Shown here: positions 31,584 through 57,270 of the stretch, piece by piece
How the letters are laid out: each line of letters starts with the position of its first letter
Position numbering within the stretch: position 1 is the first letter of the stretch
NCBI GenBank assembly: GCA_963745025.1
Contig: CAVUWD010000020.1
Span: forward strand, 207,527 to 271,526
Source of the DNA: an uncultured delta proteobacterium
GTDB lineage: Bacteria; Desulfobacterota; Binatia; JACPRU01
Direction: 5' to 3'
Length of the DNA: 64,000 nucleotides
The notes under the pieces: model-generated
Database searches by the model: none
Seen by the model: only the letters and a program-made list of their open reading frames with translations
What the model was told of the DNA's origin: nothing
Made by a program: the position numbers and the translations under genes

Positions 31584-32442
<859 letters not shown>

Positions 32443-32461
<19 letters not shown>

Positions 32462-32973
32462 TTTTCAATGGCAAACCCAACGACGCGGGCCGGGTCTATC
32501 CGGCCCGCGACGGTGGCCGGTTCTGACCCATTCGCGGGGGTCAAAACCAGGTCCCCGTCGAGCAAACCGAGGATCATCGTCTTTGCCGTCGGCACGTCCG
32601 TCTTGATGGCCCGCCGTAGCCCCCGCAGGTAGCTCCGCAGGTCCCGGGGGTCGATCGCCGTGGGGGCCCGTACGGCCCGCTTCTCGAACTTCGCTCGCTC
32701 AAGATCGGCGGTAAGGCCCGCGATCTCCTGCTCGACCGCCGCCAGCCGGTCGCGCACGGCGGTGAACGCCTCGCCCCCGCTGCCGATGGCGTCCAGCCAT
32801 CGCTTCTGCTCGGCCTTCGCCTGATCGAGCCGTTCGCGCAGCTCGTCCTCTCGTCCGCTGGTCCGGTCGATCGCCCGTCGAAGCGCGTCGTTGACCGCCG
32901 TCGCGAGCGCCGCGATGTTCTTCCTGGTCATCGCCTCGGCCGCATCGCCGCACCGCAGGAACCCCGTGAGCAA
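32443..32973 (-). pseudogene. Large serine recombinase C-terminal remnant (zinc-ribbon start, internal deletion, coiled coil) ending inside the tRNA
   Basis: YLLTGFLRCG, coiled coil, terminal CGGRI* read antisense on the tRNA T-arm; homologous to 38560-38760. Confidence 0.8.
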
Positions 32974-32977
32974 GTAG

Positions 32978-33329
32978 AGTACTCCACCGAGACCGGAAGA
33001 AAGATTACCGGCTTTGATCGATCGGCGCTTGAGGCCCTGAGGACCTACGGATGGCCGGGGAACGTTCGCGAGCTCGAAAACCGGGTCAAACGAGCGGTGA
33101 TCATGGCGGAACGAAGAAGAGAGTGGCTCCGGCCGACCTCGAGCTCGACTCGCCGTTCGAGAAGTATCAAGGGAAGCGGCTTCGCGAGGCTCGCGAGGCT
33201 CTCGAAAGAGAGATCATCGAGAAAGCGCTTGCGAAGCACGGCGGCAACATCACTCACGCCGCGACCGAGTTGGGAATAAGCCGCCCCACGCTGCATGACC
33301 TGATCAACAAATATTCCATCGTGATTTAG
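32978..33329 (+). pseudogene. C-terminal fragment of sigma54-dependent response regulator (PrsR-like)
   Basis: YGWPGNVRELENRVKRAVIMAE, Fis HTH GNITHAATELGISRPTLHDL; 5' part missing, frameshift at about 33115. Confidence 0.8.
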
Positions 33330-33361
33330 AGAATGGCGACCCGAGCACTTCTGTGCCGAGC

Positions 33362-33583
33362 TGTCGATAATCCTTACAATTCGACATACGTTTCCGAACT
33401 TTAGGATCAAGACAAACGTTTTCGCGCCGTTGCGATTTTGCTCATCTCGGCCAAAGCCCCGTAGGCCCTCGGATCGTCGGAAATCTTTACGGTTACGCTC
33501 ATTCGTACGGGATGATCAATCACGAAAACGTGGGATATTTCCATCATTTCTCGTCCTCGGCTCGACCTGGACCAATTCTTGGA
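33362..33583 (+). promoter_or_regulatory. Putative PEP-CTERM-box enhancer sites and degenerate sigma54 promoter
   Basis: TGT-N11-ACA (TGTCGATAATCCTTACA, 33362), similar CGTCGGAAATCTTTACG (33475), TGGACCAATTCTTGGA (33568). Confidence 0.5.
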
Positions 33584-33620
33584 GGAGAACTCGGGTATGA
33601 TGTCTTCTTAGGAGCGAGGA

Positions 33621-34352
33621 ATGAGACTAGTCAAATTTGTTTCGGCAGGAGCATTCGCGCTGACAATGGCCTTAGGGCTGTCTACGGCCCAGGCCACCGC
33701 GATCACCTTCACCGCGAGCGGCACCGGTTCGGACGGGGCGCTGTCCGCGAGTGCCCTATTCACGACAACTGCCGGCGAGGTCGACGTGACTCTGACGAAC
33801 CTTCTGGGCGCGAACGTGATCCGGAGCGCCGGGCAGGCACTGAGCGACATCACGTTTACCCTGAGCAATACCGCAGGGACGCTCGGTACGACGTCGGCTT
33901 CCGGGCAGCTCGGCAACATCTCGGGTATTGTTCCACCTGGCGGAGGCACGGTGACCTATACGTCCGGCGACCCCACACGCTGGCTGGGTGCTGGGGGCCA
34001 GGGTGACTTTAGCGTCGTTGGAGACACCGTTACGCTTGAGGCGATCGGCGGCGGGAAGCCGAGCCAAATGATCATCCCATTCCAAGTGGATGGAGGCGCG
34101 TACTCGAACGTGAACCCCGGGTTCGACAACTTCAACCCCTACACGATCGGCCCGGCCACCTTCAGTCTCCACCTCTCGGGCGTAACGGCGGCCACGACCA
34201 TCACGTCGGCGACCTTCTCGTTCGGGACCGGGCCTGACACTTTCTTGAGCGGTACGCCTGGGGGAGTGGCGCCCGAGCCAGGGTCGGTATTTCTCCTTGG
34301 GTCAGGTTTAGCGGCACTTGGGTTGTTCCGCTGGCGTCGTCATAGCCCCTGA
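33621..34352 (+). CDS. PEP-CTERM sorting domain protein
   Basis: Signal peptide, Thr/Gly/Ser-rich body, APEPGSVFLLGSGLAALGLFRWRR. Confidence 0.92.
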   Translation: MRLVKFVSAGAFALTMALGLSTAQATAITFTASGTGSDGALSASALFTTTAGEVDVTLTNLLGANVIRSAGQALSDITFTLSNTAGTLGTTSASGQLGNISGIVPPGGGTVTYTSGDPTRWLGAGGQGDFSVVGDTVTLEAIGGGKPSQMIIPFQVDGGAYSNVNPGFDNFNPYTIGPATFSLHLSGVTAATTITSATFSFGTGPDTFLSGTPGGVAPEPGSVFLLGSGLAALGLFRWRRHSP

Positions 34353-34366
34353 AGAGATTGACAAGC

Positions 34367-34775
34367 CTAGCTTGAAGGGGTCACCCGCAGTGCGGGTGAC
34401 CCCTTTTTTTCTCTCCGACTTCTTCGACGCTCCTGGACAGCGCGTCGCACTTGCTCCTCGAGGACGGTCGGGCTCCACGAGCCGTCGGCGTCAGCGCAGG
34501 TGGAGCAGACGCCCAGGCGCTGGAAGAAGCCCTCCGCCCTGGCGGCCTGGACAGGACGGTCCGCGGGGGGTGCGACTTTGGCGAGCTCACGTACCTCGCC
34601 GATTCCCTGCATCAGCTTCGCCACGTACTCCGCCGTGATTGCGAAGTTGAGGTTCTGTCCCGTCTTCAACGACGACGTCGCCACGCGATGACACGTGCGT
34701 TCGCGTCGAGCACCGGCCCGCCGCTGCTCCCAGCGGAAATCGGGGCGGTGATCTGCAAAAGCAACGTGGTTCTTG
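34367..34775 (-). pseudogene. Trypsin-like (S1C) serine protease fragment
   Basis: Manual translation QITAPISAGSSGGPVLDANARVI, then after frameshift VATSSLKTGQNLNFAI. Confidence 0.7.
34375..34410 (+). terminator. Rho-independent terminator
   Basis: AAGGGGTCACCCGCA-G-TGCGGGTGACCCCTT hairpin followed by a T run. Confidence 0.88.
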
Positions 34776-34888
34776 CCGCTCCTCCGCATTGGTTCAGGAG
34801 TTCGTCAGGATTTGCGCCAGCTCGGAGGCTGCGTCACGAATCGCTTCCGTTGGTCGCGATCCCCGCTCCGGCCGCGCCAACTGCCGAG

Positions 34889-35662
34889 CTAGTCTCGGCG
34901 GGAAGTGGTGCCCATCTCCTGCAAATGCCGCCTCAGCGTCTGAAGCGCCTCGAGGACTACCCGATCGTGAAAGCCGGGGTGCGAGAACGCCGCCTGTAGA
35001 CCTTCCAGCGCCTCGATCAGCGGCTGGATGCGTGCCCGTGGATCCGGATCGATCCGATCGCGAACCGCGTTGGCGAGCAATCGGGCGTAGTCGGGCTTCA
35101 AGCGCCCGCCCGCCGGATAGTCTTCGTCCTTTATGCCGAAGTCCAGCTCGCCGAGCCGCTCTGCGATCCGATCGGCCACCACCGCTGGATCCTCGGTCTC
35201 AGCGCGTTGTCGGCTCTGTCGGGTCTTCTCGGCACGCTCGACGATCTCCACGACACGTCGTTCGTCGACAGGTTTGGTCACATAGTCGAACGCTCGCAAC
35301 CGGAGAATTTCGACCGCCAGGTCTTGCGGGCTTGCGCCGGTGACGGCGATCACCTCGGTGGAGGGACTCAGATCGCGGATCCGGGCCAACGTCTCGACGC
35401 CGCTGAGCCCGGGCATTTCTAGGTCGAGGACCACGACGTCGGGCTCCTCGCGTCGCACGATTTCGACTGCCTGTTCGCCGCTCTCCGCAGCGAAGACGCG
35501 AAAGCGCGGTTCGAGCAGAAGCCGCAAAGACTGGCGAACGCCCTCCTCGGCGTCGGCAACGAGCACGGATCCTGGTTTCTCCCCCTCGCTCGTCAGCGGA
35601 TCTCCGTCCGAATAGTACACACTTCGACGAAGGGCAAAAGTCGATCCAAGCCGCTTCGTCAA
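34889..35662 (-). CDS. Response regulator receiver domain protein (start uncertain)
   Basis: VLVADAE, DVVVLDLEMPGLSG, AFDYVTKP. Confidence 0.8.
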   Translation of the reverse strand: MTKRLGSTFALRRSVYYSDGDPLTSEGEKPGSVLVADAEEGVRQSLRLLLEPRFRVFAAESGEQAVEIVRREEPDVVVLDLEMPGLSGVETLARIRDLSPSTEVIAVTGASPQDLAVEILRLRAFDYVTKPVDERRVVEIVERAEKTRQSRQRAETEDPAVVADRIAERLGELDFGIKDEDYPAGGRLKPDYARLLANAVRDRIDPDPRARIQPLIEALEGLQAAFSHPGFHDRVVLEALQTLRRHLQEMGTTSRRD

Positions 35663-36286
35663 ACGGCAGAAGTCGATCCACGCCCGTCAAAAACCTAGAA
35701 TTCTACAACGGGATGGGTTTCCCCATAAAATACGAGTATTTATCGGCTGGATGGGCACTCGGAAGCTCGTCGCGAAACCACCGAACCGCATCGAGGTTGA
35801 ACGAATCGTTCACTCCGATTGAACGCACATCGGTTGGAATTGTGCTGATGCGTAGTACCATCTCACACGACCTGTTGAGGAGTGGACCAGGAATTTCTTC
35901 GAACGGGGTTGGCGGAGCTGAAGCAGGTCAAAACGCACTGCCAAACCGTGAGAACCTGGTCGAACACCCATAGGGCGGGGGCTCCCTTGTCGACGGCGCC
36001 TCCCGCCAGCCAGACGGCGGGATCGGCGGCACGTCAAGGGATCGACATTGCAAGCACCCTCGGTTGCGTCCCGCTACGCTCAGCAGCACGAGTCGGCGGT
36101 GGATGAAAGAGCGGATGAAGGCGTTCTTGCGCGCTGCGGGTCCAGGGCAGGTCCAAGCCAGAGGTCTCACCGGTGAGCGCGCGCCCAGTCCCCTTAACGC
36201 AACAATAATCTTTGTTGTGAATTTCATACCTTGACGGAATCCGAGTGAGGGCGGACTAGTACTCTTCCAACTTCGTACTGGGATCT

Positions 36287-37441
36287 ATGACTACAATGCT
36301 GCTGTCGAGCGTCTTCCCCGTCCTCTATCTCGTTTCGCGCTCGGTCCGCTTCTCTGGCGCTCGAAGGAATCGCGAACGCGTCGTCGTTCTCGGCACCGGG
36401 GTTGGGGCGCGTAAGCTAGCTGCGGTCGTCGAATCCGCTGCTCCTCCCTCCTCCGTGGTGGGATTCGTCGCGGAAGGAAACGGACTTGATCCCACCCTGC
36501 TGAGCTTGACACTTCCCCGCCCGCTGCTCGGCAATCTCTCAGAGTTGAAGGCGATCATCGATTCGGTGCAGCCGGCTCGGATCATCGTGGCGCTCAGCGA
36601 TCGGGGCCGTCGCCCGCCGATTCAGGCGCTTCTCGAGTGCGGGGCATGCGGAGTTGCCATCGAGACCTCGGTCCAAGCCTACGAGCGTCTCAAAGGGAAA
36701 TTCGCCATCGAGAACATGACGCCGAGCTACCTGCTCTTCTCCGGACTCTTCTGCGGATCGATCCGCATAAGGCAGCGCCAGGAAGCAATCGCCCGGGCCG
36801 TCAGCGTCGCGATTGCACTCGTCGGATTGATCATTGCCGCGCCGCTCATCCTGATCGTCGCCGCACTCATCAAAATCGATTCTCCGGGCCCTGCCTTGTT
36901 CGTCCAAGAGCGCATCGGGCTCTTCGGCAAGACCTTCAAGCTTCTCAAGTTCCGAACCATGAAGGTGGGTAAGAAGACGTCGTCCGAGTGGGCACGCGAC
37001 AACGCCGATCGCATCACCCGCGTGGGAGGGTGGGTTCGCAAGTTTTGGCTCGACGAGCTACTCCAGTTCATCAACATTCTTCGCGGCGACATGAACCTGG
37101 TTGGTCCGCGACCGCATCCGGTATCGAACTACGAGCTCTTCTCGAAGAACATTCCCTACTACGGTCTGCGCGGCAGCGTGCGCCCGGGTCTCACTGGCTG
37201 GGCACAGCTCAGAAACGGCTACGCCAACAACCTCGAGGAAGAGACCGAGAAGATGCGGTACGATCTGTACTACATCAAGAACCGGTCGCTCTGGCTCGAC
37301 CTGCGAGTCATCCTCGAAACCGTGAAGGTCGTTCTCTTTGGGCTGAAGGTAAGCCCGCCGCCTCCGGAGCTGTGTTGGCAACCAGTCGCTGATTCGGCCG
37401 TTGCCAACGACCCGAATCAGGAGCTCGGGACCGTAAGCTAG
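36287..37441 (+). CDS. Exopolysaccharide priming polyprenyl-phosphate glycosylphosphotransferase (possibly N-truncated)
   Basis: VVVLGTG, IKIDSPGP, KFRTM, RITRVG, GDMNLVGPRP, PGLTGWAQ, YDLYYIKN. Confidence 0.92.
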   Translation: MTTMLLSSVFPVLYLVSRSVRFSGARRNRERVVVLGTGVGARKLAAVVESAAPPSSVVGFVAEGNGLDPTLLSLTLPRPLLGNLSELKAIIDSVQPARIIVALSDRGRRPPIQALLECGACGVAIETSVQAYERLKGKFAIENMTPSYLLFSGLFCGSIRIRQRQEAIARAVSVAIALVGLIIAAPLILIVAALIKIDSPGPALFVQERIGLFGKTFKLLKFRTMKVGKKTSSEWARDNADRITRVGGWVRKFWLDELLQFINILRGDMNLVGPRPHPVSNYELFSKNIPYYGLRGSVRPGLTGWAQLRNGYANNLEEETEKMRYDLYYIKNRSLWLDLRVILETVKVVLFGLKVSPPPPELCWQPVADSAVANDPNQELGTVS

Positions 37442-37498
37442 CCAAGGCCGAAGGTGAACGGGATCGGAGAAAATTTTTCAACGACTCAACTGTCGAAG

Positions 37499-37850
37499 TT
37501 AGGCTAGCTCGGCCCGTAGCCCGTCCTCATGGCCGCTGGCCCGCACCGCGAACCGTTTCAACTCGTCGTTCACGGCTGCGACCAACGCGGCGACGGGCTT
37601 TCGCTTCATCGCCTCCATCGCGCGGCTCATGAGCCGAGGCTCGATCGCGTCCTTGCGGTAGCGTTTGGTGTGGCCGCAGATCACTTCGCCCTTCGTCTTC
37701 GAGACGGGGCAATATTATAATACCAAGATTGCTGGTAGACCCGGTTCGGCTTCCGTCGCGTCGTGGTGATCGCAACCATCCGCGCCCCGCACGATCCGCA
37801 GCGGAGCATCCCCGTGAGCAGATAGCGATTCGAATGGACGACCCGAGATC
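37499..37850 (-). pseudogene. Large serine recombinase zinc-ribbon fragment fused by deletion to the TerS-like start
   Basis: YLLTGMLRCGSCGARMVAITTTRRKPNRVYQQSWY, matching LLNGLLRCAACGGRMEIITTTRQKNRQTYAQRWY at 56.4 kb. Confidence 0.8.
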
Positions 37851-37871
37851 GGATTCGCTGGGCGCGGCGGC

Positions 37872-37943
37872 GCGTTTTTCTGCCCCCGGCCACGGCACCA
37901 AATATAACGAAAAGCTGCGACTAGCTGCGATCCTCCGGCCTTA
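37872..37943. repeat. Conserved backbone motif, copy 1
   Basis: GGCCACGGCACCAAATATAACGAAAAGCTGCGACTAGCTGCGATCCTCC; copies at about 43712 and 50082. Confidence 0.85.
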
Positions 37944-38371
37944 GTTCGTTCTGTGGACGTTTCACTCGGGCGTCAACGCCCCCCGTAATTTTGGCTGAAT
38001 ATAGTATTCTTGAGCCGCGCCTGCTAGATTTTTTCTGCGGTGACTAGGTTTCCTTTCGCGCCGGCGATGAGGACTACGCGAGCGGCGGTGCGCACGATTG
38101 ACCCGGCGCAATCCAAGGCGCGCGCTGAACATGAAGGGCGGTGTTTCGGAGACCGGGTGTCGCTGTTCATGCGATGCGAGTATTCTACCACCGACAGCGG
38201 GTGCGGACGCACCGGCCCCTCGCCACGCCCGTAGTTGGAGATCGCACGATGCCTGGCGGTCCGGGACCGGCTCCACGCGTGCGATCGTCACACCGCACAA
38301 TCGCGGGCGCGACGCGCGCCCGATTCCCCGCGCGACGGGTGGCGAACCGGCGATCCCGCGTTGCACGTAAC

Positions 38372-38560
38372 CGGTCCCAAACCCGCCGCTATAACCCATG
38401 CCCGGACACCCCTGGGATCGCCCGGAAACGGCCCGTGCGGCCCCGCAACGGCCCCGATCCGGGCCGTAACCATCAACCCGGTAAATCGACCGTGAATTTG
38501 ATGGGTTCCATGGCGATCGCCAACGCGGTCGCCGGTCCATTCGAATCGCGCCCCCGCAAT
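38372..38560. repeat. Element right end plus att core, copy 1
   Basis: Homologous to 55601-55776; ends TTCGAATCGCGCCCCCGCAAT, resembling the tRNA 3' end. Confidence 0.85.
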
Positions 38561-38760
38561 GATCAATCGCACACCCAACAAGGCGGGCCGGGTCTATCCG
38601 GCCCGTCACGTTGGCCGGTTGACCGTCCGTCCCGGGGGTCAAAACTAGGTCGCCGTCGAGCAGCCGCAGGATCATCGCCTTGGCCGTCGGCACGTCCGTT
38701 TTGATCGCCCTCTGCAATCCCCGCACGTAGGACCGTAAGTCCCTGGGCTCGATCGCCGTG
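38560..38760 (-). pseudogene. Large serine recombinase extreme C-terminal remnant
   Basis: RAIKTDVPTAKAMILRLLDGDLVLTP...GRIDPARLVGCAIDHCGG, nearly identical to the 32443 remnant. Confidence 0.8.
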
Positions 38761-38863
38761 GGTGCCCATCACACCCATCACGCGCCCCCGGCCCGCTCCC
38801 GGAGCGGATTTCCCGCGTTTTCACACGGCCCCGGCGGCGACGCCGGGCGAAGAGGAGCACAGC

Positions 38864-39022
38864 ATGACGAAGACGACGACGACACCACCGCCGAAAGTTC
38901 CGCCTCCCGTCGAACCCGCCGAGCCAGTTTTCTGCGCGGTCTGCGGATCGAGCGACCCCTCGTGTCACGTAAATCGAAACGCACCACCACCGCGAAACGA
39001 TGGTGAGAATGATGGGCGCTGA
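38864..39022 (+). CDS. Small Pro-rich CxxC peptide
   Basis: RBS GAGGAG, MTKTTTTPPPK...FCAVCGSSDPSCH; overlaps next gene. Confidence 0.4.
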   Translation: MTKTTTTPPPKVPPPVEPAEPVFCAVCGSSDPSCHVNRNAPPPRNDGENDGR

Positions 39023-39338
39023 CCCAGCCGCCGTCTTTCAACCGGTGGCGGTGTTGCCCGACCCACCGTCGAGGCGGACGACGCCCGAGATTCGCCTGCT
39101 CGTTGCACTCCTCGACGACGCCATCGGCCTCGCGACCGGTCGATACGTCCCGACGGTCGGCGGCGACCACACCTCGCGCGGCCGCGCGAACGCCCAGCGG
39201 CGCGTCATCGAAGAGGCACGCGAGTGGATCACGCGCGGCGACGTCGGCGCGATCACGTTCGACGACACGTGCGGTGCGCTCGGCCTCGACCCGGGCTTGG
39301 TTCGTGCGGCGCTGCTACGGAAAGAGAGGCGTCGATGA
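39009..39338 (+). CDS. Hypothetical helical protein of the element backbone
   Basis: PEIRLLVALLDDAI...EAREWI...TFDDTCGALGLDP; diverged paralog at 47891-48218. Confidence 0.7.
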   Translation: MMGADPAAVFQPVAVLPDPPSRRTTPEIRLLVALLDDAIGLATGRYVPTVGGDHTSRGRANAQRRVIEEAREWITRGDVGAITFDDTCGALGLDPGLVRAALLRKERRR

Positions 39339-39679
39339 AATGCAAGGTATGTGGTGTCCGCCCCGCGAACAGCCGCAGGCACCCCGGGCTTTGTGCCAGG
39401 TGCTCGGTCGCCAACGCAGGGCGTGGACCCGGTCCACGCCGATCCCCGATCGCGCCCGGAGAAATGCGGAGGCGATCCGGGCAAAGATCGGAAAATCTTG
39501 CGATCGCTCTCGCTCTCGCTCGTTCCAACACGCCCAGCAGATGTAACAGGAAATCTTCTCATGAAATTCTCGACCCAATTTTCCACGCTTGCCTCTGGAT
39601 CGATTTTTGTGTCATCTACGCACCGGAGCGCGACCTCTCGAATCGGGAGTGTCACCGAGAGTACATTATATCGGCATGA
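39335..39679 (+). CDS. Putative zinc-finger protein (CxxC...CxxC); C-terminus doubtful
   Basis: ATG overlaps upstream stop; MKCKVCGVRP...GLCARC; duplicated at 48215-48559. Confidence 0.45.
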   Translation: MKCKVCGVRPANSRRHPGLCARCSVANAGRGPGPRRSPIAPGEMRRRSGQRSENLAIALALARSNTPSRCNRKSSHEILDPIFHACLWIDFCVIYAPERDLSNRECHREYIISA

Positions 39680-39772
39680 TCGGCCGAATTGGTGTAAGGG
39701 CTTGATATTTTACCCTGCCGTACACGACACCGCCCCGAGGCAATCGATCTTACGGCGGTTCGACGACAACAG

Positions 39773-40375
39773 ATGCTGAATATGACTGCTCTCTGGAAGC
39801 ATCGGCTGACTCGCGTGGCAGTTTTGGTGAGTTGCTTCAGCGGAGCCGCATCGGAGTTACGCGCGGATCCCCTCACCTTTGAAAGCGCCTTCTTCTTGCT
39901 CAGTTCGTCGGGCGCGCGGCTCGATCTCTTTTCCAACCCGGGCGTCGTCATCGAGCCGAGCACTTACGAGAGAACGATCTTTCCACCCGCGTTTATATTC
40001 TCAACAATTGTCCCCTACGCCGGTGGACCATCAATTACTGACACTATCCGATTCACGTACCAGGAAATGGGCTCCGCACCGGAGGAGTTGCAGCAGTCGT
40101 TCAGCACAGGGATCGATCCGGTGACGCTCGGCTTCGTCGCGAGGTTCGAGCCGATCAGCCACACTGGCATGCTGGTACCGGCAACACTCACCGTTGATCT
40201 GTTGAATAGTGCTCCGGACTTTGTGATCCCAGCCGGACCAGATCAGGGCCAGCTGGTCGATTCGTTCACATATACGTTTTCGACTTTCACGCCTACACCA
40301 GAACCCTCGACATTGCTCCTGCTGGGTACCGGCGTCGCATGCGTGGCGCTAAGACGTTGCCGAAGGCTGACCTGA
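39773..40375 (+). CDS. PEP-CTERM sorting domain protein (copy 1)
   Basis: Signal peptide, TPEPSTLLLLGTGVACVALRRCRR. Confidence 0.9.
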   Translation: MLNMTALWKHRLTRVAVLVSCFSGAASELRADPLTFESAFFLLSSSGARLDLFSNPGVVIEPSTYERTIFPPAFIFSTIVPYAGGPSITDTIRFTYQEMGSAPEELQQSFSTGIDPVTLGFVARFEPISHTGMLVPATLTVDLLNSAPDFVIPAGPDQGQLVDSFTYTFSTFTPTPEPSTLLLLGTGVACVALRRCRRLT

Positions 40376-40786
40376 ACGAACTTCTCCGGTTTACGGTTCC
40401 CGGGTTCTATGCCTCCTCGTTCTGGGGTTAGTATAGGGACTGGCCTTTCCTACAGTTCCTTTCCAGCACGTGGCGGCTCATGCATGTATCCGTGGGGACG
40501 CTGAGGTACGGCACCGAGGAGGAGCGCCGGCAACGCCGGAGGAGGTCCTTTCGCGTCAGAGGCTCGGAGACCAACCGCTCCACCAGATTTTCGGGCACGC
40601 CGATAGGCCAAAGTCTCCACTTCGATTCGCCCTGATTGCGATTCAGCCGCGGCCGGAGGGCCGAGATCAATGCCGTCTCCACGGTGCTTCCGCCCTGTCC
40701 GCTCGGCCTCGGCGGACACCTGAAAGCCAGCCATTAAAGGACGGGTCAAAACCGGCCATTATCGGGGCGGCCGGGACGGGGTTGGT

Positions 40787-43785: not shown

Positions 43786-43828
43786 CTCGATAAGCGTTCC
43801 GAGCCCCCGCTTGATCTCGCCAGCCACC

Positions 43829-47782: not shown

Positions 47783-47890
47783 TCGCGCCGGGTCAAAGCC
47801 GACAGCCCCGCCCCCCGTCGAGCCCGACCGCTGCCAGATCTGCGGATCGATCGACGCCTCCTGTCACGCGAACCGAAAGCGCGACGGATC

Positions 47891-48218
47891 GTGAACGCTG
47901 ACCCGCTCAACATCTTCGAACCGGTGTCAGTGCTGCCCGACCCGCCGTCGAGGCGCGACACGCCCGAGCTACGATTGCTCATCGCACTCCTCGAAGACGC
48001 GATCGCGCTCTCGACCGGTCGATTACGTTCCGGCGCTCGGCGGCGACCACACCTCGCGCGGCCGCGCGAACGCCCAGCGGTGCGCCGTCGAAGAGGCGCG
48101 GCGGTGGATCGTCGAAGGCGATCGCGGATTGATTTCGTTCGACGATTGCTGCGGTGCGCTCGGCCTCGACCCGGGCTTGGTTCGTGCGGCGCTGCTACGG
48201 AAAGAGAGGCGTCGATGA
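47891..48218 (+). pseudogene. Paralog of 39009-39338 backbone protein, apparent frameshifts
   Basis: NADPLNIFEPVSVLPDPPSRRDTPELRLLIALLEDAI...FDDCCGALGLDP. Confidence 0.7.
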
Positions 48219-48652
48219 AATGCAAGGTATGTGGTGTCCGCCCCGCGAACAGCCGCAGGCACCCCGGGCTTTGTGCCAGGTGCTCGGTCGCCAACGCAGG
48301 GCGTGGACCCGGTCCACGCCGATCCCCGATCGCGCCCGGAGAAATGCGGAGGCGATCCGGGCAAAGATCGGAAAATCTTGCGATCGCTCTCGCTCTCGCT
48401 CGTTCCAACACGCCCAGCAGATGTAACAGGAAATCTTCTCATGAAATTCTCGACCCAATTTTCCACGCTTGCCTCTGGATCGATTTTTGTGTCATCTACG
48501 CACCGGAGCGCGACCTCTCGAATCGGGAGTGTCACCGAGAGTACATTATATCGGCATGATCGGCCGAATTGGTGTAAGGGCTTGATATTTTACCCTGCCG
48601 TACACGACACCGCCCCGAGGCAATCGATCTTACGGCGGTTCGACGACAACAG

Positions 48653-49255
48653 ATGCTGAATATGACTGCTCTCTGGAAGCATCGGCTGACTCGCGTGGCA
48701 GTTTTGGTGAGTTGCTTCAGCGGAGCCGCATCGGAGTTACGCGCGGATCCCCTCACCTTTGAAAGCGCCTTCTTCTTGCTCAGTTCGTCGGGCGCGCGGC
48801 TCGATCTCTTTTCCAACCCGGGCGTCGTCATCGAGCCGAGCACTTACGAGAGAACGATCTTTCCACCCGCGTTTATATTCTCAACAATTGTCCCCTACGC
48901 CGGTGGACCATCAATTACTGACACTATCCGATTCACGTACCAGGAAATGGGCTCCGCACCGGAGGAGTTGCAGCAGTCGTTCAGCACAGGGATCGATCCG
49001 GTGACGCTCGGCTTCGTCGCGAGGTTCGAGCCGATCAGCCACACTGGCATGCTGGTACCGGCAACACTCACCGTTGATCTGTTGAATAGTGCTCCGGACT
49101 TTGTGATCCCAGCCGGACCAGATCAGGGCCAGCTGGTCGATTCGTTCACATATACGTTTTCGACTTTCACGCCTACACCAGAACCCTCGACATTGCTCCT
49201 GCTGGGTACCGGCGTCGCATGCGTGGCGCTAAGACGTTGCCGAAGGCTGACCTGA
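48653..49255 (+). CDS. PEP-CTERM sorting domain protein (copy 2, identical)
   Basis: Same translation as 39773-40375. Confidence 0.9.
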   Translation: MLNMTALWKHRLTRVAVLVSCFSGAASELRADPLTFESAFFLLSSSGARLDLFSNPGVVIEPSTYERTIFPPAFIFSTIVPYAGGPSITDTIRFTYQEMGSAPEELQQSFSTGIDPVTLGFVARFEPISHTGMLVPATLTVDLLNSAPDFVIPAGPDQGQLVDSFTYTFSTFTPTPEPSTLLLLGTGVACVALRRCRRLT

Positions 49256-49307
49256 ACGAACTTCTCCGGTTTACGGTTCCCGGGTTCTATGCCTCCTCGT
49301 TCTGGGG

Positions 49308-49763
49308 TTAGTATAGGGACTGGCCTTTCCTACAGTTCCTTTCCAGCACGTGGCGGCTCATGCATGTATCCGTGGGGACGCTGAGGTACGGCACCGAGGA
49401 GGAGCGCCGGCAACGCCGGAGGAGGTCCTTTCGCGTCAGAGGCTCGGAGACCAACCGCTCCACCAGATTTTCGGGCACGCCGATAGGCCAAAGTCTCCAC
49501 TTCGATTCGCCCTGATTGCGATTCAGCCGCGGCCGGAGGGCCGAGATCAATGCCGTCTCCACGGCGCGCCCTGTCCGCTCGGACCCGAAGGGACCGCAGG
49601 CTTCGAGAAGGAACTTGCGGCGTCCAAGGAACGCGGCCAGTAAGCGATTGTGGCTCGCGGACTGATGCGAGGTCGCCCGCAAAACTCTGCCGCCGTACCC
49701 GACGTACTGAGCCTTCCCGTCGAGGTCACGGTAGACGTAAACGAAATAGCGTGTTCGTTCCAT
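49308..49763 (-). CDS. GIY-YIG (LEM-3-like) nuclease domain protein, possibly C-truncated
   Basis: FVYVY..YVGYG..R..H, VETALI, LNR pattern. Confidence 0.7.
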   Translation of the reverse strand: MERTRYFVYVYRDLDGKAQYVGYGGRVLRATSHQSASHNRLLAAFLGRRKFLLEACGPFGSERTGRAVETALISALRPRLNRNQGESKWRLWPIGVPENLVERLVSEPLTRKDLLRRCRRSSSVPYLSVPTDTCMSRHVLERNCRKGQSLY

Positions 49764-49802
49764 GGCCGTCGGTGCACCGGCAATGCGTCGTAGCGACGGA
49801 CG

Positions 49803-50102
49803 TCACCAGCCGCCCTTGCCAAAATCGCGCCGCCACTCGCGCAGAAGGCGCGGTGTTATCTTCCAGCGCGCGCGGGGCTTGCGACGGTCAGTCCGTGACG
49901 CGTTGTACAGCTCGACCAGCATCGGGACGAGACCAAAGGAGTCGAGGATGTTCAATAAGTAGCCGGGATTTTCCCGGGCGCACATCTCGATGAAGTCGCG
50001 CTTGCGCGCGGTGCCGGGCCGGAGCGCCGCGCCGAGCATGTTCCGGCGCGGGTCGTGGCCCGCCCTGAAATCTCTGCCGCCCGTTTTTCTGCCCCAGGCC
50101 AC
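49803..50102 (-). CDS. Conserved 99-aa backbone protein (TerS-like), copy 2
   Basis: Identical protein to 43433-43732. Confidence 0.75.
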   Translation of the reverse strand: MAWGRKTGGRDFRAGHDPRRNMLGAALRPGTARKRDFIEMCARENPGYLLNILDSFGLVPMLVELYNASRTDRRKPRARWKITPRLLREWRRDFGKGGW

Positions 50103-50170
50103 GGCACCAAATATAACGAAAAGCTGCGACTAGCTGCGATCCTCCAGCCTTACTGTAGTTCGTTCTGACG
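50082..50170. repeat. Conserved backbone motif, copy 3
   Basis: GGCCACGGCACCAAATATAACGAAAAGCTGCGACTAGCTGCGATCCTCC, then TAGTTCGTTCTG as in copy 1. Confidence 0.85.
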
Positions 50171-50304
50171 AAGCTCCGAAGCGAGCTCATCAACCACTAC
50201 GCCCTCAACCTGCCCGACGCGCTGCTCGACGTGCTCGAAGCCCGCGGCAAGATCCCCGCGCTGGTCGAGCGCTACAAGACGCGCGTTCGGCGCGACCCGC
50301 GGCT

Positions 50305-50360
50305 GGCGGATCTGCATGACCTTGTCGCCAACCCGGAAGAGGCGGCTACCGTGGACGATG
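50305..50360 (-). pseudogene. Very short RecD2-like helicase fragment
   Basis: HGSRLFRVGDKVMQIR motif only. Confidence 0.4.
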
Positions 50361-50379
50361 GCAGGGAATGCTCGATGCC

Positions 50380-51162
50380 CTACCTGCCCATTTCCACCTT
50401 GGTTCGGGCGGCTTCTTCGTCGGTGAGGCAGCGGCCGCGTCGAATGACATAGCCGCGCGGGCACGTCCAGTCTCCGACGCTCGCCTCGAATGGCTTCGGC
50501 CGCTTCTCCTCGCGTTCGGCTCGGTCGAACTCTTCGGCGATCCGTTCCGTCATCGCCCGTTGATGTTCTGCTTCCTCCGCAGCACGTCTTTGTTCGGCCG
50601 CCACTCGCTCCGCTTCCGCGCGTTTTTCGGCTTCGAGGACGGCGGCGAGCTCGCGGTCGCGACCCTCGTATCGCAACTCCGCCTTGCGGAGCGCCTTGTT
50701 CCCCGCCCTCCAGATCAACCGGATCGCCGAGTCTGCGTCTAGGTGATCAGCTCCAGGCTCGCCGTCGACCGGGATTCCATAGCGCGAGACGAGCGGAGCG
50801 ATGTGTGCCGACGTCGATGACACCTGAGAGCTCTTGCGCTCGATCTTCTCTCGCCACAGTGTCAGGCTATCGCCGTAGGCGAGACCCGCCTGCGCATAGA
50901 GGAACACGAGCTGACGGTCCTCCTCGCCGTCGACCTTGTCCTTCGCACCGAGAAGCTCGACCGCGAGGATCTTGGCGAGCTCGCTGAAGCGCTCATAGGA
51001 GACACCCCTCACCATCTCGCCCCGCATGGCTCTGGCCGCGCGGTCGAGCGCTGCAAACTTCCGCCGCTCGATCGCGTGGGCCCTCGGCGGCAAGAGGAGC
51101 GCTCCGCAAGCAGTGAGGCCGGCGATTGCGACGATCCATTTGCAAGACGCGCCCGTCGCCAT
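50380..51162 (-). CDS. Hypothetical exported protein with coiled coil
   Basis: Signal-like N-terminus ...LLLPPRAHA, EAEKRAEAER coiled coil, C-terminal WTCPRGYVIRRGRC. Confidence 0.6.
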   Translation of the reverse strand: MATGASCKWIVAIAGLTACGALLLPPRAHAIERRKFAALDRAARAMRGEMVRGVSYERFSELAKILAVELLGAKDKVDGEEDRQLVFLYAQAGLAYGDSLTLWREKIERKSSQVSSTSAHIAPLVSRYGIPVDGEPGADHLDADSAIRLIWRAGNKALRKAELRYEGRDRELAAVLEAEKRAEAERVAAEQRRAAEEAEHQRAMTERIAEEFDRAEREEKRPKPFEASVGDWTCPRGYVIRRGRCLTDEEAARTKVEMGR

Positions 51163-51314
51163 TTCCGCCGCCGTGGTAAGCACCGTCCACCTCCGTGGCA
51201 TAGCGGTCGACCGTCCGCTTCTACCGCATCTGCACATTGAGCTGCGAGCGCTTACGCATGAAGGCGAATTCCCCGGCGTTCCTCCGGTCCGGACGGTTTG
51301 AAACTCGACAACTC

Positions 51315-51495
51315 GGCACGTTTCGAGGTCGTGGTGGAGGATGATGGGCGGGGGATTCCGGCCGAGTTCGACGGCAAGCTCTTTCAGCGGTTCGCCGACG
51401 TCTCGCACCGGCGCGACTCGACGGGGCTCGGCCTCTTCATCGTGAAGTCGATCACGGAGGCCCACGGCAGAAGCGTGTTCGCCGGGAACCGGCGG
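51315..51495 (+). pseudogene. Histidine kinase HATPase_c fragment
   Basis: VEDDGRGIP..LFQRF..STGLGLFIVKSITEAHG. Confidence 0.7.
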
Positions 51496-52178
51496 TCGAC
51501 TACAAGCCGGCCGCGCAGGACCCCCAGCGATGGCGAGGTAGACCGCGATCCTGCAAAGAGATCACGACGGCAGTTTCTCGGCGAGCTTCCCAGACCTAGC
51601 CGGCTGCTCGTCTCGGGAAGGACCTTCGGTGAGACACGCCTCAAGGCGACCAACGCCTTGCGGCTTCGGCTTGAACAGATGGTCGCGGCGGGCAGCGAGA
51701 CTCCCGAAGGCCGAGCGGAGTTGAGAAGCTCGCTGACAGGCCGCCTACCGAGAGTGTGTCGCCTTCCAGGTCGCCGTGGAGGGCTCGCTTCTCCACGCCT
51801 TGAACGAGAAGCGGCGAAGCGGCGAAAAGTAAGTCGTCCGAGTCTCTTACCGCGTCGCCTTGCGTTTGCGAGGCCAGCCCTCGCTCGCGGATAATCTCGC
51901 GCCCCAGCTCGGCGACGCGAAGTAGTGGTTAGCCCCCCCACCTCCGACCGGCGATCAGCCCGGCCATGGGGCTTGATCCAGTCGTTCCCCTTCGCCTTCG
52001 CCCTGGCGGTCTCGATCGCGATCTTTTCGGCCGGCTCGATCTAACGAATTCGGCGAGCTGGGGACCCAAGCTGTCTAAGTTCTCGATGAACGGGACGGTT
52101 TTTGAAAAAGCGTAGTTTGCGGGGCCCGAGTGTGGCCGGCTTCTCGCCTCCAGGCCCGCAGTTCGCGCGACCATCGCC

Positions 52179-54918
52179 TCATCCATTCGCCGACGAGTCG
52201 TTCGCGGTTCGACTGTCCAGGCCCCGGCGCGTGGATCTCTGGGCGAGCGGGTGTCGGGCCAGCCATTTCCGCAATTCTTCGAGAATGAGCATGGCGACGG
52301 CGAAAGGGACGATGAACAGCCACACCGGCCCAACGAGAGGTGATGTAACCGACGAGCACGTTTCCCCAGGGTGTGTAGTTGATGACTAGAATCAGCGCGA
52401 TCTCCAAGGCCACGCCCCACAGGATCAGCGGGTTTCCGAGCAGGCCTGTGGAAAACAACGAGCGCGAGGCGCTGCGGCACAGGAACACGTTCATGATCTG
52501 CATCACGATGATGGCACTCAAGCAGGCGGTGGTCGCCTGGAGATACAGCGGGTCCTGGGGCGCAAGTTCCTGGCCATACTTCCAGCCCCCCGCGTGGAGC
52601 ACGAAGAAGAACGCGGCCATAGCGGCGGCCGCCTCGATAGGTCCGAGGAACAGGTAGGCGCGCCGCGCCAGCGGCCAGTTCATCAAACGTTCGCTTCGGG
52701 CCCGCGGGGGGCGCTGCATGACTCGCGGCGCGGGCCGTTCGACGCCCAGACCCAGAGCGGTCAAGGAATCTGTTCCCATGTCGATGGCCAGGGCCTGGAT
52801 CGGCGTCAGCGCCAGCGGGATCCCGAACAGCGCGAAGCCGAGATAGGGGATCAGCTCAGCAACGTTGTGCACAAGCACATAGGTTAGGAACTTGCGAATG
52901 TTCTCGTAGACTGCCCGTCCCTCTTCGATGGCGTTCACGATACTGGCGAAATTGTCGTCGAGTAGCACCATGTCTGCTGCCTCTTTGGCGACGTCCGTGC
53001 CCGCAATCCCCATCGCGATGCCGACATGCGCACTCTTGAGCGCGGGCGCGTCATTCACGCCGTCGCCGGTGACAGCCACAACCTGGTTCTTGTTCTTCAG
53101 CGCCTCAACGATGCGCCCCTTCTGCTCTGCACTGACCCGGGCAAAGATGACATCGGGAGTGTCCAGCGTCAGCATCAGCTGGGTGTCCGAGAGACTGCGG
53201 ATCTGCTCGCCTGTGATCACAGCCGCATTATCCCCTGTGGCGAGCCCGATTTCGCGGGCAATCGCCCGGGCGGTGCGCGGGTGGTCGCCGGTCACCATGA
53301 TCACCCTGATTCCCGCCTCACGGCACCTGCGCAGCGCTTCCGGCACCTCGGGCCTGGGCGGGTCTTCCAGGCCGACCAGCCCGGCGAAGACCAGATCCTG
53401 TTCTAGACCCTCGCGCTTCCATTGGGTGCCCACCGAGCGGTAGGCAAACGCGAGGACCCGCAGCCCCTGCTCGGCCATTTGTTCGTGAGCTGCGAGGATC
53501 TGCTGTTGCAGTCGGAAGTCCAGGGCGGGCGTGTCACTGTGAAGTAAAAGTCGGCTACACAGCGGAAGAACGGATTCCAGCGCCCCCTTGCAGTACAGTA
53601 CGGGGCCCTCAGGCATCGCGTGCACCGTAGACAGCCGCATGCGGTCCGCGTCGAAGGGGATCTCGTCTAGCCGGGCGCAGGCGGGCGGCTCGGGCAGGAT
53701 CCGGCGAGCCATCTCGATCAGCGCAATCTCCATCGGATCGCCCAGAAGAGCGGTACCGCGGTGCTCTCCCGTTCCCCTGACGTCATGGCACAGCTTGGCC
53801 GTTAGGAAGAAGTGCCGATAGGACTGCGCGAACGCGTTGCTCGGCTCGATCGCAGTTGGAGAATACGTCCCATCCCCGAGGAAGAGCCGTGCGACCGTCA
53901 TGCGGTTCTGAGTCAGCGTTCCGGTCTTGTCGGTACAGATCACCGTGGTCGAGCCGAGCGACTCGACCGATGGCAGGTAGCGGACGAGAACACTGCGCCG
54001 CGCCATGCGCTGGGTGGCAAGCACCAGCGACAGGGTCAGCGTCGGTAGAAGCCCCTCGGGCACCATCGCGACGATGATCCCGATGGCGAAAATGAAGTCC
54101 TTCCAAAAAGTGACTCCGGTCAGCCAGCCGATAGCGAAGAAGATCAGCCCGATCAGGATCGCCAAGAATGCGATCAACCGGCTCAAGCGGGCCAGTTCCT
54201 TTCTCAACGGAGACACGGCTTCGCCGGCCGTTTGGGTAAGCCGCGCGATCTTGCCGAACTCGGTGTGCATGCCGGTCGCGAGCACGACCGCCCGCGCCTG
54301 GCCCGACGTGATCGAGGTGCCGGCCAGCAGGATGTTCTTGGCGCGGATCGGCTCATCGGCGTCGGAAGCAGCCGCCTCGCGCACCAAGGGCATGGACTCA
54401 CCCGTGACTGCGGCGTTGTTGACCCGAACGTCGAACGCCTCGAGGAGCCGGCAATCCGCAGGGATGTTGTCACCCTGCTCAAGCAAAACGATGTCCCCCG
54501 GCACCAGCTGCTCTGCGGATCCCAGAATGACCCTGCCGCCGCGCGTAAGCTTCACCTTCTGCGGCAGCAGTCTGCGTAGCGCGGCCAGAGTCCTTTCGAC
54601 CCGATATTCCTGCCAAAAGGAGAACAGGCCGCTCACCAGGATCACCATCACGATGGCATAGCCAATCTTGGCCATGCCCTGGCCCGGATCGCTCCACTCG
54701 GCCACAAATGCGAGCCCGGCCGCAGCCCAGAGAATCAGCGAAAAGAACTGAATGAACTCTTTGACAAGCCGCAGCCACGCCGGCTCACGCGCAAGTTCCT
54801 GCACGACGTTGGGCCCGTACTCGAGCAGCCGGCGCTCGGCCTCGTCGGGTAACAGCCCCAGAGGAGTGCTATGTAGATGCGCGAGGGCTTCGTCGCTGGA
54901 GAGTTGATGTATCTTCAT
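52179..54918 (-). CDS. Cation-transporting P-type ATPase (type II), apparent frameshift at about 52345
   Basis: TGES, VPEGL, CTDKTGTLT, MVTGD, GDGVNDAPAL. Confidence 0.93.
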
Positions 54919-55065
54919 GTTCGCTGGAGATGACGCGGCGTCCGCCTCCATTGGTCTGATCGGGGGCGTGCTTCCGGGACCGGTTCAGGCCCCATAGCGG
55001 TCTCGAGCCGCAGGCGGTGACGGCGATTTCTTGCCCTGGATGCGAACATGCCGCATCCGAGACGC

Positions 55066-55560
55066 CTATTTCGTTCGGACTCTCGTCTCAGAACATGAGG
55101 TGGGCAATACATGCGGGGAGAACTGCCCAAGGACATTACCGGGCGGATCGTAGTTGCATACCCAAATGTCGGCTCCGGGGCACTGGGCGATGCCACATCC
55201 GATCCGGCTGGTACCAGCCCAGACAACCTGGGTGAAGTGCTTTGTGGCGTGCCGGTACTGACCTCGTCGAAAACTGTAATGCGCGACCTCAGAATACCAC
55301 CTCTGAACAACGGCCTCGGGTGTTAGAGATCCTGAGGGCACAGCGTAAGCGATGTTCTCCCCACAGACGCTATCGGGATTGTGTTGCAGCGGGCAGCCGC
55401 GATCGCGCAGTCGATCCGCCCAGCCCTGAGCGATTGCCGCCAGGGGCGGCGACCACATGATCGCGCGAGCGCAATGCAGGCGACGATAGTGGTTGTGCAC
55501 GGCCACGAGTTCCCTTAACACCTGCGGCGACGCCTCTACCGATGACGTGGTCGCTCCCGC
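55066..55560 (-). pseudogene. CAP/SCP (PR-1-like) domain protein, N-terminus cut by element right end
   Basis: HNHYR, GENIA, WYSE, HFTQVVW, CNYDPPGN. Confidence 0.8.
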
Positions 55561-55561
55561 G

Positions 55562-57270
55562 TTAGCCTCTGACAGGCAACTCTGCGACGGCGCAATCGCG
55601 CGGTCCCAAACCCGCCACGGGACACCCCGGTAATCGACCGGAAACGGGGTGCATGGGCCCCGCCCGTGGCCGGTCGGGGCCGTACCATTCACCCGGGCAA
55701 ATCGACCGTGAATTCGACGGGTTCGATGGCGATCGCCACGGCGGGTGCCGGTCTTTTCGAATCGTGCCCCCGCAATGAACTAGGATCGAATTTCCGGATC
55801 GCAGGGCCTCCTCCTGACCGAGGAGGCCCTCAGCTTTCCAGGCGCCGGTGATCTCGTAGCCCCGCTCGCCGATCTCTGCGGGCAGGGAGCGCAGGCTCAG
55901 GCTGCCTTCCAGGTGGCGGGCGATCTCGATCTTGGCGGCGGCCGGGTTCTTCGCGAGGAGTTGCTGAAGCCGCTCGAGCTTAGCGACGAGCCACTCGCGG
56001 TGGACCTTCGGTGGCAGGGCCTTCGCCCGGCTCGAGGCCGCGGCGAGTTCGGCCTCCGCGATGGCGATCCGCTGCTCGATGCCTCGGAGGCGCTCGCGCA
56101 CGGTCGAGGAGTCGCCCTCAGCGAAGAAGGCGACGAGGTTGTCTGCCTCGGCTCTGAGGCGTGCGATCTCGGCGGTGAGCTTCTTCGGGGTGCCGCGCTC
56201 GTCGCGGAGTGCCCTTTCGACGGCCTTGTTCAAGGCGGCGGCGATGCGGTCGATGAGGGCGTTGTCGCCGCGCGGAACCGTTCGATGAGGTCGGCCTCGA
56301 GGAGGTCGGCACGATAGCGGGCCGAGTGGTCGCAGATGGCCGGCCCCTTGTTGCGGGCGTCGCTGCAAAAATACCAACGCTGTGCGTAGGTCTGCCTGTT
56401 CTTCTGGCGAGTCGTCGTGATGATCTCCATGCGGCCGCCGCAGGCGGCACAGCGAAGGAGGCCGTTGAGCAGGTGCGCCGAGTAGAGGCTGGCGGCGCCG
56501 CGACGGATACCTCTGCGGCCGGCGCCCTCGTAGCGCTCCTCGATCATGCGGATCCGGGCGGCCACGGCGCGCCAGAGCGTGTCGGGGACAATGCGAAGCT
56601 CGGGCTGCTCGGCCGTTGCCCACTCCGCCTTCGGCCGCAGCAGGTAGCGCCGTGTTCCTGTGTCCGGGTCCTTGACCCACTGCCGCTTGTTCCAGATCAC
56701 GCGGCCGACGTAGCGCTCGTTGCGGAGAATCCAGCGGACGGTGACGCGCGACCAGCCCTTCCGCACTCGCTCGCGTCTCGTGCCCTTGGCGGGGAAGGGG
56801 ACGCCGGCGTCGTTCAGGGCGACCGCGATCGCGCGAAGGCTTTTCCCATCTCGGTACTCCTCGAAAATGCGGCGCACGATCGCCGCCTCCGCCTCGTCGA
56901 TCTCGAGGCGCGCCGGCTGCGAATGCTTGCCGGGACGCGCGGCGCCTTCGACCTTGACCGCGCGATAGCCGAAGGTCCTTCCGCCCGTGCTGAGGCCGCG
57001 CGTGTGCGAACCTTGCAGGTCCCGGTGCGTCTTCTCGCGCAAGTCGTCGAGATAGACCTCGTTCATCGCGCCCTTCACGGTCAAGAGGAGCTTCGCACCC
57101 TTCGCGTTCGACGCGACGCCGTCCGAGACGCCGACGATCTCCACGCCGCGCAGACGCAGGCGCGCGTTGGTTCTGAGCAGCTCGGCGGTGTCCCGCGTGA
57201 GGCGCGAAAGGTCCTCCACGAGAATCACGTCGAAGGCCCTCGGCGCGGCGAGTGATACGAGACAGGCCAT
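55562..57270 (-). pseudogene. Large serine recombinase, lacking catalytic N-terminal Y-x-R-x-S segment, frameshift at about 56265
   Basis: VILVEDLSRLTRD, GGRTFGY, EAAIVRRIF, ILRNERYVG, LLNGLLRCAACGG, coiled coil, HCGG at att core. Confidence 0.88.
55601..55776. repeat. Element right end plus att core, copy 2
   Basis: Homologous to 38372-38560; ends TTCGAATCGTGCCCCCGCAAT. Confidence 0.85.

Follow-up and report, generated by a model that had tools for sequence, protein, structure and literature searches.

A decayed stack of serine-recombinase elements, probably built by successive insertion at an initiator tRNA gene of an uncultured Binatia bacterium

The 3′ end of an initiator-type tRNA-Met gene in an uncultured Binatia bacterium has very probably been the repeated target of at least four elements, each inserted by a large serine recombinase (LSR), which now form a decayed tandem array. 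The stretch analysed, hereafter the window, comprises 64,000 nucleotides (G000:C20:207527-271526) of a 5.65-Mb assembly (G000) with a completeness of 92.65% and a contamination rated at 7.6%; window position 64000 is the end of the contig. The array extends from 32442 to at least 57309, beside the sole initiator-type tRNA-Met found, and contains four recombinase remnants, named LSR1 to LSR4. An earlier reading of the sequence alone had proposed that at least four related elements integrated successively at one site and were then shortened by deletions. This proposal is supported by the anatomy of the junctions, the homologies of the element arms, the distinctness of the LSRs and the habit of the clade to which they belong.

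The target is a tRNA-Met(CAT) gene located at 32388-32461 on the forward strand (ARAGORN; Rfam tRNA, 64.4 bits). It carries a C1×A72 mismatch, does not encode CCA and has the sequence of a bacterial initiator. Among the three tRNA-CAT genes of the assembly, it is the only one with a mismatch at 1:72. Apart from the tRNA, Rfam returned nothing between 30000 and 64000 at E ≤0.1, and therefore the arms of the elements contain no known RNA. The 21-nt tRNA-end motif TTCRAATCNNNCCCCCGCAAT is present at 32442, 38540 and 55756, each time without a mismatch. No further copy was found in the window with up to two mismatches allowed, and a scan of the entire assembly confined the motif to these three places. 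In addition, none of 100 shuffles reached three motif matches, and the 10-bp core of the motif occurs three times in the window, against a shuffle mean of 0.12. The three positions and their exact core are those picked out in the sequence-only reading.

The first site (junction 1, 32442-32462, forward strand) is attL-like and consists of the T-loop and acceptor end of the tRNA with the core CCCCCGCAAT (32453-32462). Junction 2 (38404-38562) and junction 3 (55620-55778), on the same strand, are each composed of a right-end (P) arm followed by a mimic of the tRNA end, TTCGAATCGCGCCCCCGCAAT at 38540-38560 and TTCGAATCGTGCCCCCGCAAT at 55756-55776, respectively. Alignment of the three sites and a comparison of the window with itself give the order tRNA, LSR-side arm at junction 1, and right arm, core, LSR-side arm at junctions 2 and 3. 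The core and LSR-side arm are 81% identical between 32442-32669 and 38540-38767, with the arms of junctions 1 and 2 being 81-82% alike. The other arm and the core are 80% identical over 162 nt between 38404-38562 and 55620-55778 (alternatively, 76% over 170 nt). A homologous right end of about 180 bp had been claimed before the second and third motif copies; it is indeed found, with an arm of about 160 bp. It had also been claimed that each copy is immediately followed by the 3′ end of a minus-strand LSR, and the C-termini aligned by tblastn (32943-32446, 38762-38544 and 56254-55760) reach all three cores. Repeated insertion at one site predicts exactly this junction pattern. Overall, the core is directly repeated, each copy has an integrase gene equally placed and oriented, and the junctions are hybrid, as is characteristic of a tandem array.

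LSR pieces were mapped by tblastn using seven intact homologues of 339-602 amino acids as queries, and 188 stop-to-stop frames of at least 90 amino acids, between 31.4 and 63.1 kb, were scanned with Pfam. All four remnants are on the reverse strand. LSR1 (32443-32990) was delineated by translation and by tblastn, which aligns 32943-32446 to residues ~390 to the end of the homologues. It retains the C-terminal ~150 codons and a stub of the start of the zinc ribbon, the ribbon itself being deleted internally, and is 82% identical in amino acids to residues 390-525 of the homologue P0078. Its frame ends in ...ENCGGRI*, with the stop at 32443, 19 nt within the tRNA gene. Near 32975, the truncated LSR1 abuts a truncated sigma-54 activator (32977-33326, forward strand; AAA lid and Fis-type helix-turn-helix in two frames, PF25601 and PF02954); this contact is a deletion or rearrangement joint. 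Only the last ~70 codons remain of LSR2 (38561-38767; tblastn 38762-38561, residues ~483 to the end). They are 89% identical in amino acids to residues 483-526 of P0078, and their nucleotides are 81% identical to the LSR1 tail.

LSR3 (55777-57309; Pfam, tblastn and frame analysis) is a pseudogene of which residues ~48-401 are encoded at 57309-56251 in one frame and residues 402-557 at 56254-55802 in another. The frame 56233-57309 is the sole one with LSR domains among those scanned, and matches PF00239 Resolvase (E 3.1e-12, profile positions 56-143 of 145), PF07508 Recombinase (E 7e-25) and PF13408 zinc ribbon (E 5.8e-12). The N-terminal catalytic part shows a degenerate motif, a deletion of ~25 codons and an in-frame stop, and residues 1-47 of the homologues have no in-frame counterpart. 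Since LSR3 bears several lesions, its death does not hang on one indel that could be a sequencing error. Compared with the LSR1 type, its C-terminal part is ~28-33% identical and its body 46-47%. LSR4 (37490-37860; tblastn) corresponds to the zinc-ribbon region, residues ~315-436, with a frameshift near 37715 and both ends cut off. LSR1 and LSR4 cover the same residues, with 59% identity over 39 shared amino acids, and are therefore separate copies; the fourth remnant, placed at 37499 from the letters alone, is confirmed.

LSR3 displays the order Resolvase, Recombinase, zinc ribbon that defines the LSR class, and the other three remnants can each be aligned with the equivalent segment of intact homologues of 533-602 amino acids. 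A catalytic serine within the conserved N-terminal motif is found in none of them, and LSR1, LSR2 and LSR4 lack the whole N-terminal half. LSR1 to LSR4 are therefore LSR family members by descent and not active enzymes. A search of the assembly for another LSR copy returned three matches, namely the gene itself, the fragment at 37.5 kb and one weak, unrelated match. It had been stated that no intact recombinase remains in the window, and this holds, as the one frame with LSR domains is N-terminally incomplete and none was found elsewhere in the assembly. The elements of the array are no longer self-mobile.

At all three junctions, the LSR frame passes through the core. At the tRNA, it ends in ...CGGRI* with a stop supplied by TTCAAATC of the T-loop. 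In the arm mimic, TTCGAATC replaces TTCAAATC and reads Arg, and the LSR frame remains open, for 66 codons beyond junction 3 and 199 codons beyond junction 2. All frames of the arms look equally conserved. A conserved C-terminal extension coded by the right arm was considered and rejected, because at the protein level only CGG.IR is common to four arms (two from G000 and one each from the relatives G001 and G006 described below).

We propose the following mechanism. The LSR gene of each element occupied the end next to the tRNA, in antisense orientation. The attachment site lay inside the last LSR codons, so that the LSR frame of an inserted element ends within the tRNA. The opposite end of the element was an arm of ~160 bp terminating in the 21-nt mimic of the tRNA end. 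The observed junctions, made of right arm, core and LSR tail, resulted from repeated insertion at one target. The elements were later inactivated and shortened, as their sequence shows, by deletions, by an internal duplication of 2.4 kb, and by the arrival of IS21 and of an ISL3 copy. We infer that the junctions correspond to separate recombination events. Insertion next to the tRNA and distal insertion, at an arm that mimics the tRNA end, leave identical junctions. LSR3 is the most complete and most distal remnant and is absent from G001, which fits growth at the distal end without proving it.

The same arrangement is found in a large set of related recombinases. A search of 5.8 billion proteins gave 751 matches at E ≤1e-20 among 8000 scored candidates. 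Many full-length homologues (~560-575 amino acids) end in antisense tRNA-end peptides, for instance ...AGAGFEPATFGL or ...CGGRI. Species-representative genomes scanned with a peptide pattern from the LSR body provided 80 clade loci, from Rokubacteria, Alpha-, Beta- and Gammaproteobacteria, Nitrospira and others, and the clade is present in cultured Dyella, Rubrivivax, Alcaligenes and Polynucleobacter. In 58 of the 80 loci, a tRNA-Met(CAT) is positioned antisense at the LSR 3′ end. All 58 tRNAs start with (C/T)GCG and have an unpaired 1:72 position, either C opposite A or T opposite T/C; C1×A72 was scored by script in 35 of them, and four more are C-A by their printed sequence, given ARAGORN end offsets. 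Seven further loci have the tRNA-end motif alone at the LSR 3′ end, and at least four of the other 15 end by a contig break before the expected place, as judged from locus lengths. An uninterrupted frame of at least 450 amino acids crosses the edge of the tRNA in 56 of the 58 loci. The stop lies 44 nt inside the tRNA in 47 loci, a position that is antisense to U33 and the first two anticodon bases, 22 nt inside (T-loop) in seven and 43 nt inside in one; in one locus the frame runs past the entire tRNA to a stop at 148 nt. LSR1 shares these features, being antisense to an abutting initiator tRNA, with a frame that crosses the core and stops inside the tRNA.

Tandem arrangements at the initiator tRNA are seen in two of these loci. 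In L052 (Gammaproteobacteria), two LSRs are arranged in tandem, 8.8 kb apart (10001-11551 and 18792-20279). In L028 (Rokubacteria), the LSR is adjacent to an exact 48-nt duplicate of the 3′ half of the tRNA (12453-12500), 8 kb from the true tRNA (20380-20456); the identity of this partial copy to the true gene extends from the anticodon stem through CCA. The cargo upstream of the LSR, surveyed in 10 loci (45 of the 91 selected frames scanned), is heterogeneous and shows no common backbone. It includes an S24 repressor, DUF3854/DUF5906 primase-like genes, a SinI restriction-modification pair and an AAA_25 protein. At another locus (L093, 11625-11708), the tRNA contains NN and a duplicated anticodon-loop word and is called tRNA-??? 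(cata) by ARAGORN; it is probably a masked or misassembled spot.

The locus was compared with that of G001 (same genus), G006 (another genus), G005, and G004 (same family, 65% complete). G001 has the flank, the tRNA and an LSR in the same order as G000. Its LSR is a full-span pseudogene in which the N-terminal motif is unusual and the frame is broken twice near the end. A second core is located 4.7 kb away in G001, preceded by a homologous arm and followed by ~20 LSR codons fused to a DNA-ligase fragment. In G006, the tRNA is still adjoined by ~130 broken LSR codons, and a type 2 junction lies on a separate contig (contig 4). The arms of G001 and of G006 contig 4 are homologous to the junction 2 arm, with 80% and 73% identity, respectively. 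G005 retains at the tRNA an LSR stub of only ~15-50 nt. In G004 (L025, G004:C26 ~15100-15250), a canonical hairpin and T-run occur downstream of the initiator tRNA, and tblastn detected no LSR, which on sequence makes it a candidate empty site in the same family. G004 reads GCAAC where the occupied sites read GCAAT. The genes downstream of the tRNA in G004 have no syntenic counterpart in G000, only scattered paralogues with 31-44% identity. An extra stretch of 0.75 kb, similar to G000 contig 19, separates the G004 tRNA from the upstream flank gene.

Beyond the tRNA, no synteny was found among G000, G001, G006, G005 and G004, and blastn of the relatives' flanks hits other contigs or nothing. 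The sequence-only reading had named stable core genome in relatives as the observation that would speak against it, and the region downstream of the tRNA does not behave in this way. At the protein level, LSR1 is 64% identical to the G001 copy versus 82% to a metagenomic protein. At the nucleotide level, G000 and G001 share 72.5% identity in the LSR remnant versus 84.6% in the flanking gene, and G000 and G006 share 74.5% versus 78.0%; the LSR1 tail is nearer to G006 than to G001. Taken as sequence comparisons, these figures would fit shared descent as well as separate acquisition and decide for neither.

A GC-rich hairpin is located ~25-50 nt past the tRNA end, within the codons of the LSR tail (32484-32509, forward strand). 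Equivalent hairpins follow junction 2 (~38582-38607) and junction 3 (~55800-55830). RNAalifold analysis of seven junction tails (three from G000, two from G001 and two from G006) showed compensatory changes in seven of 15 pairs. Across the 58 clade loci with a tRNA, the first 60 nt past the tRNA fold to a mean of -25.0 kcal/mol; the six next windows of the same gene reach -16.5 to -21.5 kcal/mol despite a higher G+C. This first window is the most stable of the seven in 28 of the 58 loci, versus ~8 expected by chance, and many of these structures consist of a hairpin with a T-run. The conservation of the structure suggests that this element-borne hairpin is probably a terminator of tRNA transcription after insertion.

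Several observations weigh against successive insertion at this site. A terminal attR (right arm, core, displaced flank) was found neither in the window nor in the assembly; because the contig ends at 64000, it may lie beyond that point, or it may be deleted. Neither a circular junction nor a definite empty site was found in the public runs and relatives examined. Junction 3 and LSR3 have no counterpart in G001. An LSR scar flanks the tRNA in four of the five family relatives examined, so that some of the array may be of old, inherited origin rather than assembled in this lineage. The usual LSR reaction is restricted to attP with attB, and with so strict a habit the reuse of an occupied site needs explaining. 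For 33000-40700, 20 public sequencing runs from 17 studies were listed, stored as contigs, with a best word share of 0.36. Contig pieces of 150-480 nt from four public runs were aligned to 37000-56999, and none of the listed pieces bridges 38560 or 55776. Many of them are 100% identical to parts of the window; the joints that they contain have short sides (20-58 nt) and fall in insertion sequence (IS) or ATPase regions shared with other organisms.

The lack of any listed read or contig piece that bridges junction 2 or 3, the repeat-rich nature of the locus and the 7.6% contamination estimate, which likewise weighs against successive insertion, are what could be put forward for an assembly artefact, that is, a chimeric contig of a metagenome bin joining att-bearing fragments of several strains or species. 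We hold this to be highly improbable, because G001 and G006, which are independent assemblies, show homology that continues across junction 1, and because G001 and G006 contig 4 both possess a type 2 junction, with right arm, core and LSR tail. Moreover, four other runs contain pieces that match many parts of the array with 100% identity, and the G+C is even across the joints of the array. Another explanation is that one or two elements were inserted once, the extra junctions and LSR fragments having arisen in place by segmental duplication, unequal crossing-over or gene conversion. A segmental duplication of 2.4 kb (94% identity) does exist inside the array. Also, the tails of LSR1 and LSR2 are 82% identical versus 71% for LSR1 and the same-position copy of G001, which fits concerted evolution. 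However, LSR3 shares only ~28-33% (C-terminal part) and 46-47% (body) identity with the LSR1 type, LSR4 has 59% identity to LSR1 in their overlap, and the right arms are 80% alike. These divergences far exceed the 6% of the known internal duplication and make duplication in place an improbable source of the junctions.

A third account takes the locus as a cassette site that is still usable, like that of the staphylococcal cassette chromosome (SCC), in which LSR-less units would be moved by an LSR acting in trans. The att cores are intact and identical, as this would require, but the assembly, complete to 92.65%, contains no intact LSR of the clade and the units have been scrambled by deletions that removed arms, so that we regard continued use as quite unlikely. 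Successive insertion followed by decay is thus the reading that we retain for the junctions and for the contents of the array described below.

Within the array, gene calling by G+C at third codon positions (GC3) discriminated poorly, and the G+C is uniform across the joints; the genes given here were identified with Pfam. Between LSR1 and LSR4 are a PEP-CTERM protein (33612-34349, forward strand), a response regulator (34892-35686, reverse strand) and a sugar transferase (36260-37438, forward strand). Element 2 (38561-55776) has been enlarged by an IS21-family element, an ISL3 transposase and the 2.4-kb duplication. The duplicated block is present twice, with 94% identity, as 38890-40706 plus 43222-43775 and as 47798-50145, all on the forward strand. 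In the first copy, part A (38890-40706) encodes an ISL3 transposase N-terminal portion as well as a PEP-CTERM protein (39698-40372) and is 94% identical to 47798-49582; part B (43222-43775) is 94% identical to 49576-50145. The two parts are separated by the IS21-family element (40707-43221, reverse strand; rve, Mu-transpos_C_2 and IstB_IS21), which sits inside this block copy with clean borders, inverted repeats at both termini and a target duplication of 7 bp (40700-40706 and 43222-43228). Since istA and istB are each split over frames, this element, too, is probably inactive. In the second copy (47798-50145), parts A and B are contiguous and include a second PEP-CTERM gene (48578-49252). An ISL3-family transposase frame occupies 47071-48438 on the reverse strand (PF01610, E 7.6e-63). 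The DDE part of this transposase is reached only from the second block copy, the first being cut inside the IS.

The sequence-only reading had also reported a backbone motif that appears three times. The three copies are indeed found, as a repeat of 71-92 nt at 37867, 43706 and 50076. Two of them are the ends of the 2.4-kb duplicated block (part B copy 1 and the contiguous copy 2), and the third, an 87-nt end fragment of part B (37867-37953, forward strand), is beside LSR4. The repeat is therefore not shown as an element backbone, and mostly reflects the internal duplication.

Other genes of the array are a tyrosine integrase C-terminal fragment (46508-47077, forward strand; PF00589, profile positions 127-170 of 172 only), which is a trace of another kind of element, a P-type cation ATPase (52078-54984, reverse strand), 83% identical in nucleotides to a gene of the G001 island, and a CAP-domain protein (55069-55692, reverse strand). 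Truncated regulators lie in the island beside the PEP-CTERM genes, namely the C-terminus of the sigma-54 activator at 32977-33326 and a histidine-kinase ATPase fragment at 51262-51891. Both might derive from a regulatory pair of the PEP-CTERM system. Beyond the right end of the array, direct repeats were observed at 58498-58877 and 60279-60658 (84% identity) and at 62642-63122 and 63516-63995 (93%), among zinc-ribbon proteins and an adenylate-cyclase-like gene. In the same region, an AAA_16/TPR protein (60308-62968, reverse strand) belongs to a large paralogous family; the homologous region of G001 matches more than 30 places on many G000 contigs.

Stacks of this general kind are known from SCC and SCCmec, where Ccr LSRs drive the formation of tandem units at the 3′ end of rlmH, with copies of the insertion site between the units. 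There, the target is a protein gene and the ccr genes are located inside the element, whereas here the target is a tRNA and the LSR lies across the attachment site. The phage-type serine integrases of phiC31, Bxb1, A118 and SPbeta (SprA) use short sites with little identity between attP and attB, mostly in protein genes. Their domain order (Resolvase, Recombinase, zinc ribbon, coiled-coil) is the same as here. In contrast to these systems, attP and attB in the present clade share 21 nt on one side (48 nt in L028), and the site is within the last codons of the integrase itself.

The array also resembles elements already described at tRNA genes. In the tycheposons of Prochlorococcus, the available part of the report describes adjacent elements at one tRNA with only a partial tRNA copy between them, read as successive integrations; fragmented integrases and extra partial tRNAs are regarded there as remnants, and tRNA-proximal insertion is proposed (bioRxiv 10.1101/2020.12.28.424599). 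According to the same part, 910 of 937 elements have tyrosine recombinases and the rest LSRs, and tRNA-Met is not mentioned in the main text (bioRxiv 10.1101/2020.12.28.424599). The present array is likewise tandem at a tRNA, yet all four of its integrases are LSRs of one clade, its target is an initiator tRNA and every copy is dead. In Mesorhizobium, serine-recombinase IMEs sit at tRNA-Met, and the nickel island of the C089B type, which also has a serine recombinase, occupies the tRNA-Met 3′ end, where a 14-bp repeat is found, as stated in the accessible portions of two reports (PMC10990125, PMC8627217). These islands are single, span 53-172 kb and carry mobilisation genes, and the same portions do not mention an overlap between the recombinase frame and the tRNA. 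The literature search for serine recombinases at tRNA-Met yielded only these Mesorhizobium cases. No paper pairing “tRNA-fMet” with “serine recombinase” was found in texts searched without their supplements, and only one unrelated review paired “serine integrase” with “initiator tRNA”. The TIGER/Islander pipeline paper, in the part available, does not treat serine-integrase islands at initiator tRNA genes; the associated resource may hold such islands.

The array is the dead remainder of an island kind that has already been described, and as such fairly ordinary and decayed. Tentatively, and with somewhat less than even confidence, we suggest that the locus is the worn-out end state of an LSR lineage that spans phyla and is specialised on the initiator tRNA. 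In this joint picture, the tRNA may supply the final 7-14 codons and the stop of the LSR when the element is inserted, and the free form may read on into the other arm, where TTCGAATC stands instead of TTCAAATC. An intrinsic terminator in the penultimate codons may make read-through from tRNA-fMet, which would run antisense to the integrase gene, depend on the element's state. Finally, the tRNA-mimicking right arm may keep an occupied site targetable, giving rise to SCC-like stacks despite the attP×attB rule.

In this genome, the array accounts for at least 25 kb of hypervariable DNA next to an essential gene, in an island that is now fixed because no recombinase is left. The value of the array lies in the context that it gives to a widespread clade of initiator-tRNA-targeting LSRs that is thinly documented in print, and the locus adds a large-genome lineage of soil or wetland type to this cross-phylum clade. 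Since the target is near-universal and highly conserved, intact members of the clade could be used as integration tools with a broad host range. The hybrid character of the stacked junctions also raises the question of how strictly the LSRs of this clade hold to recombination between attP and attB.

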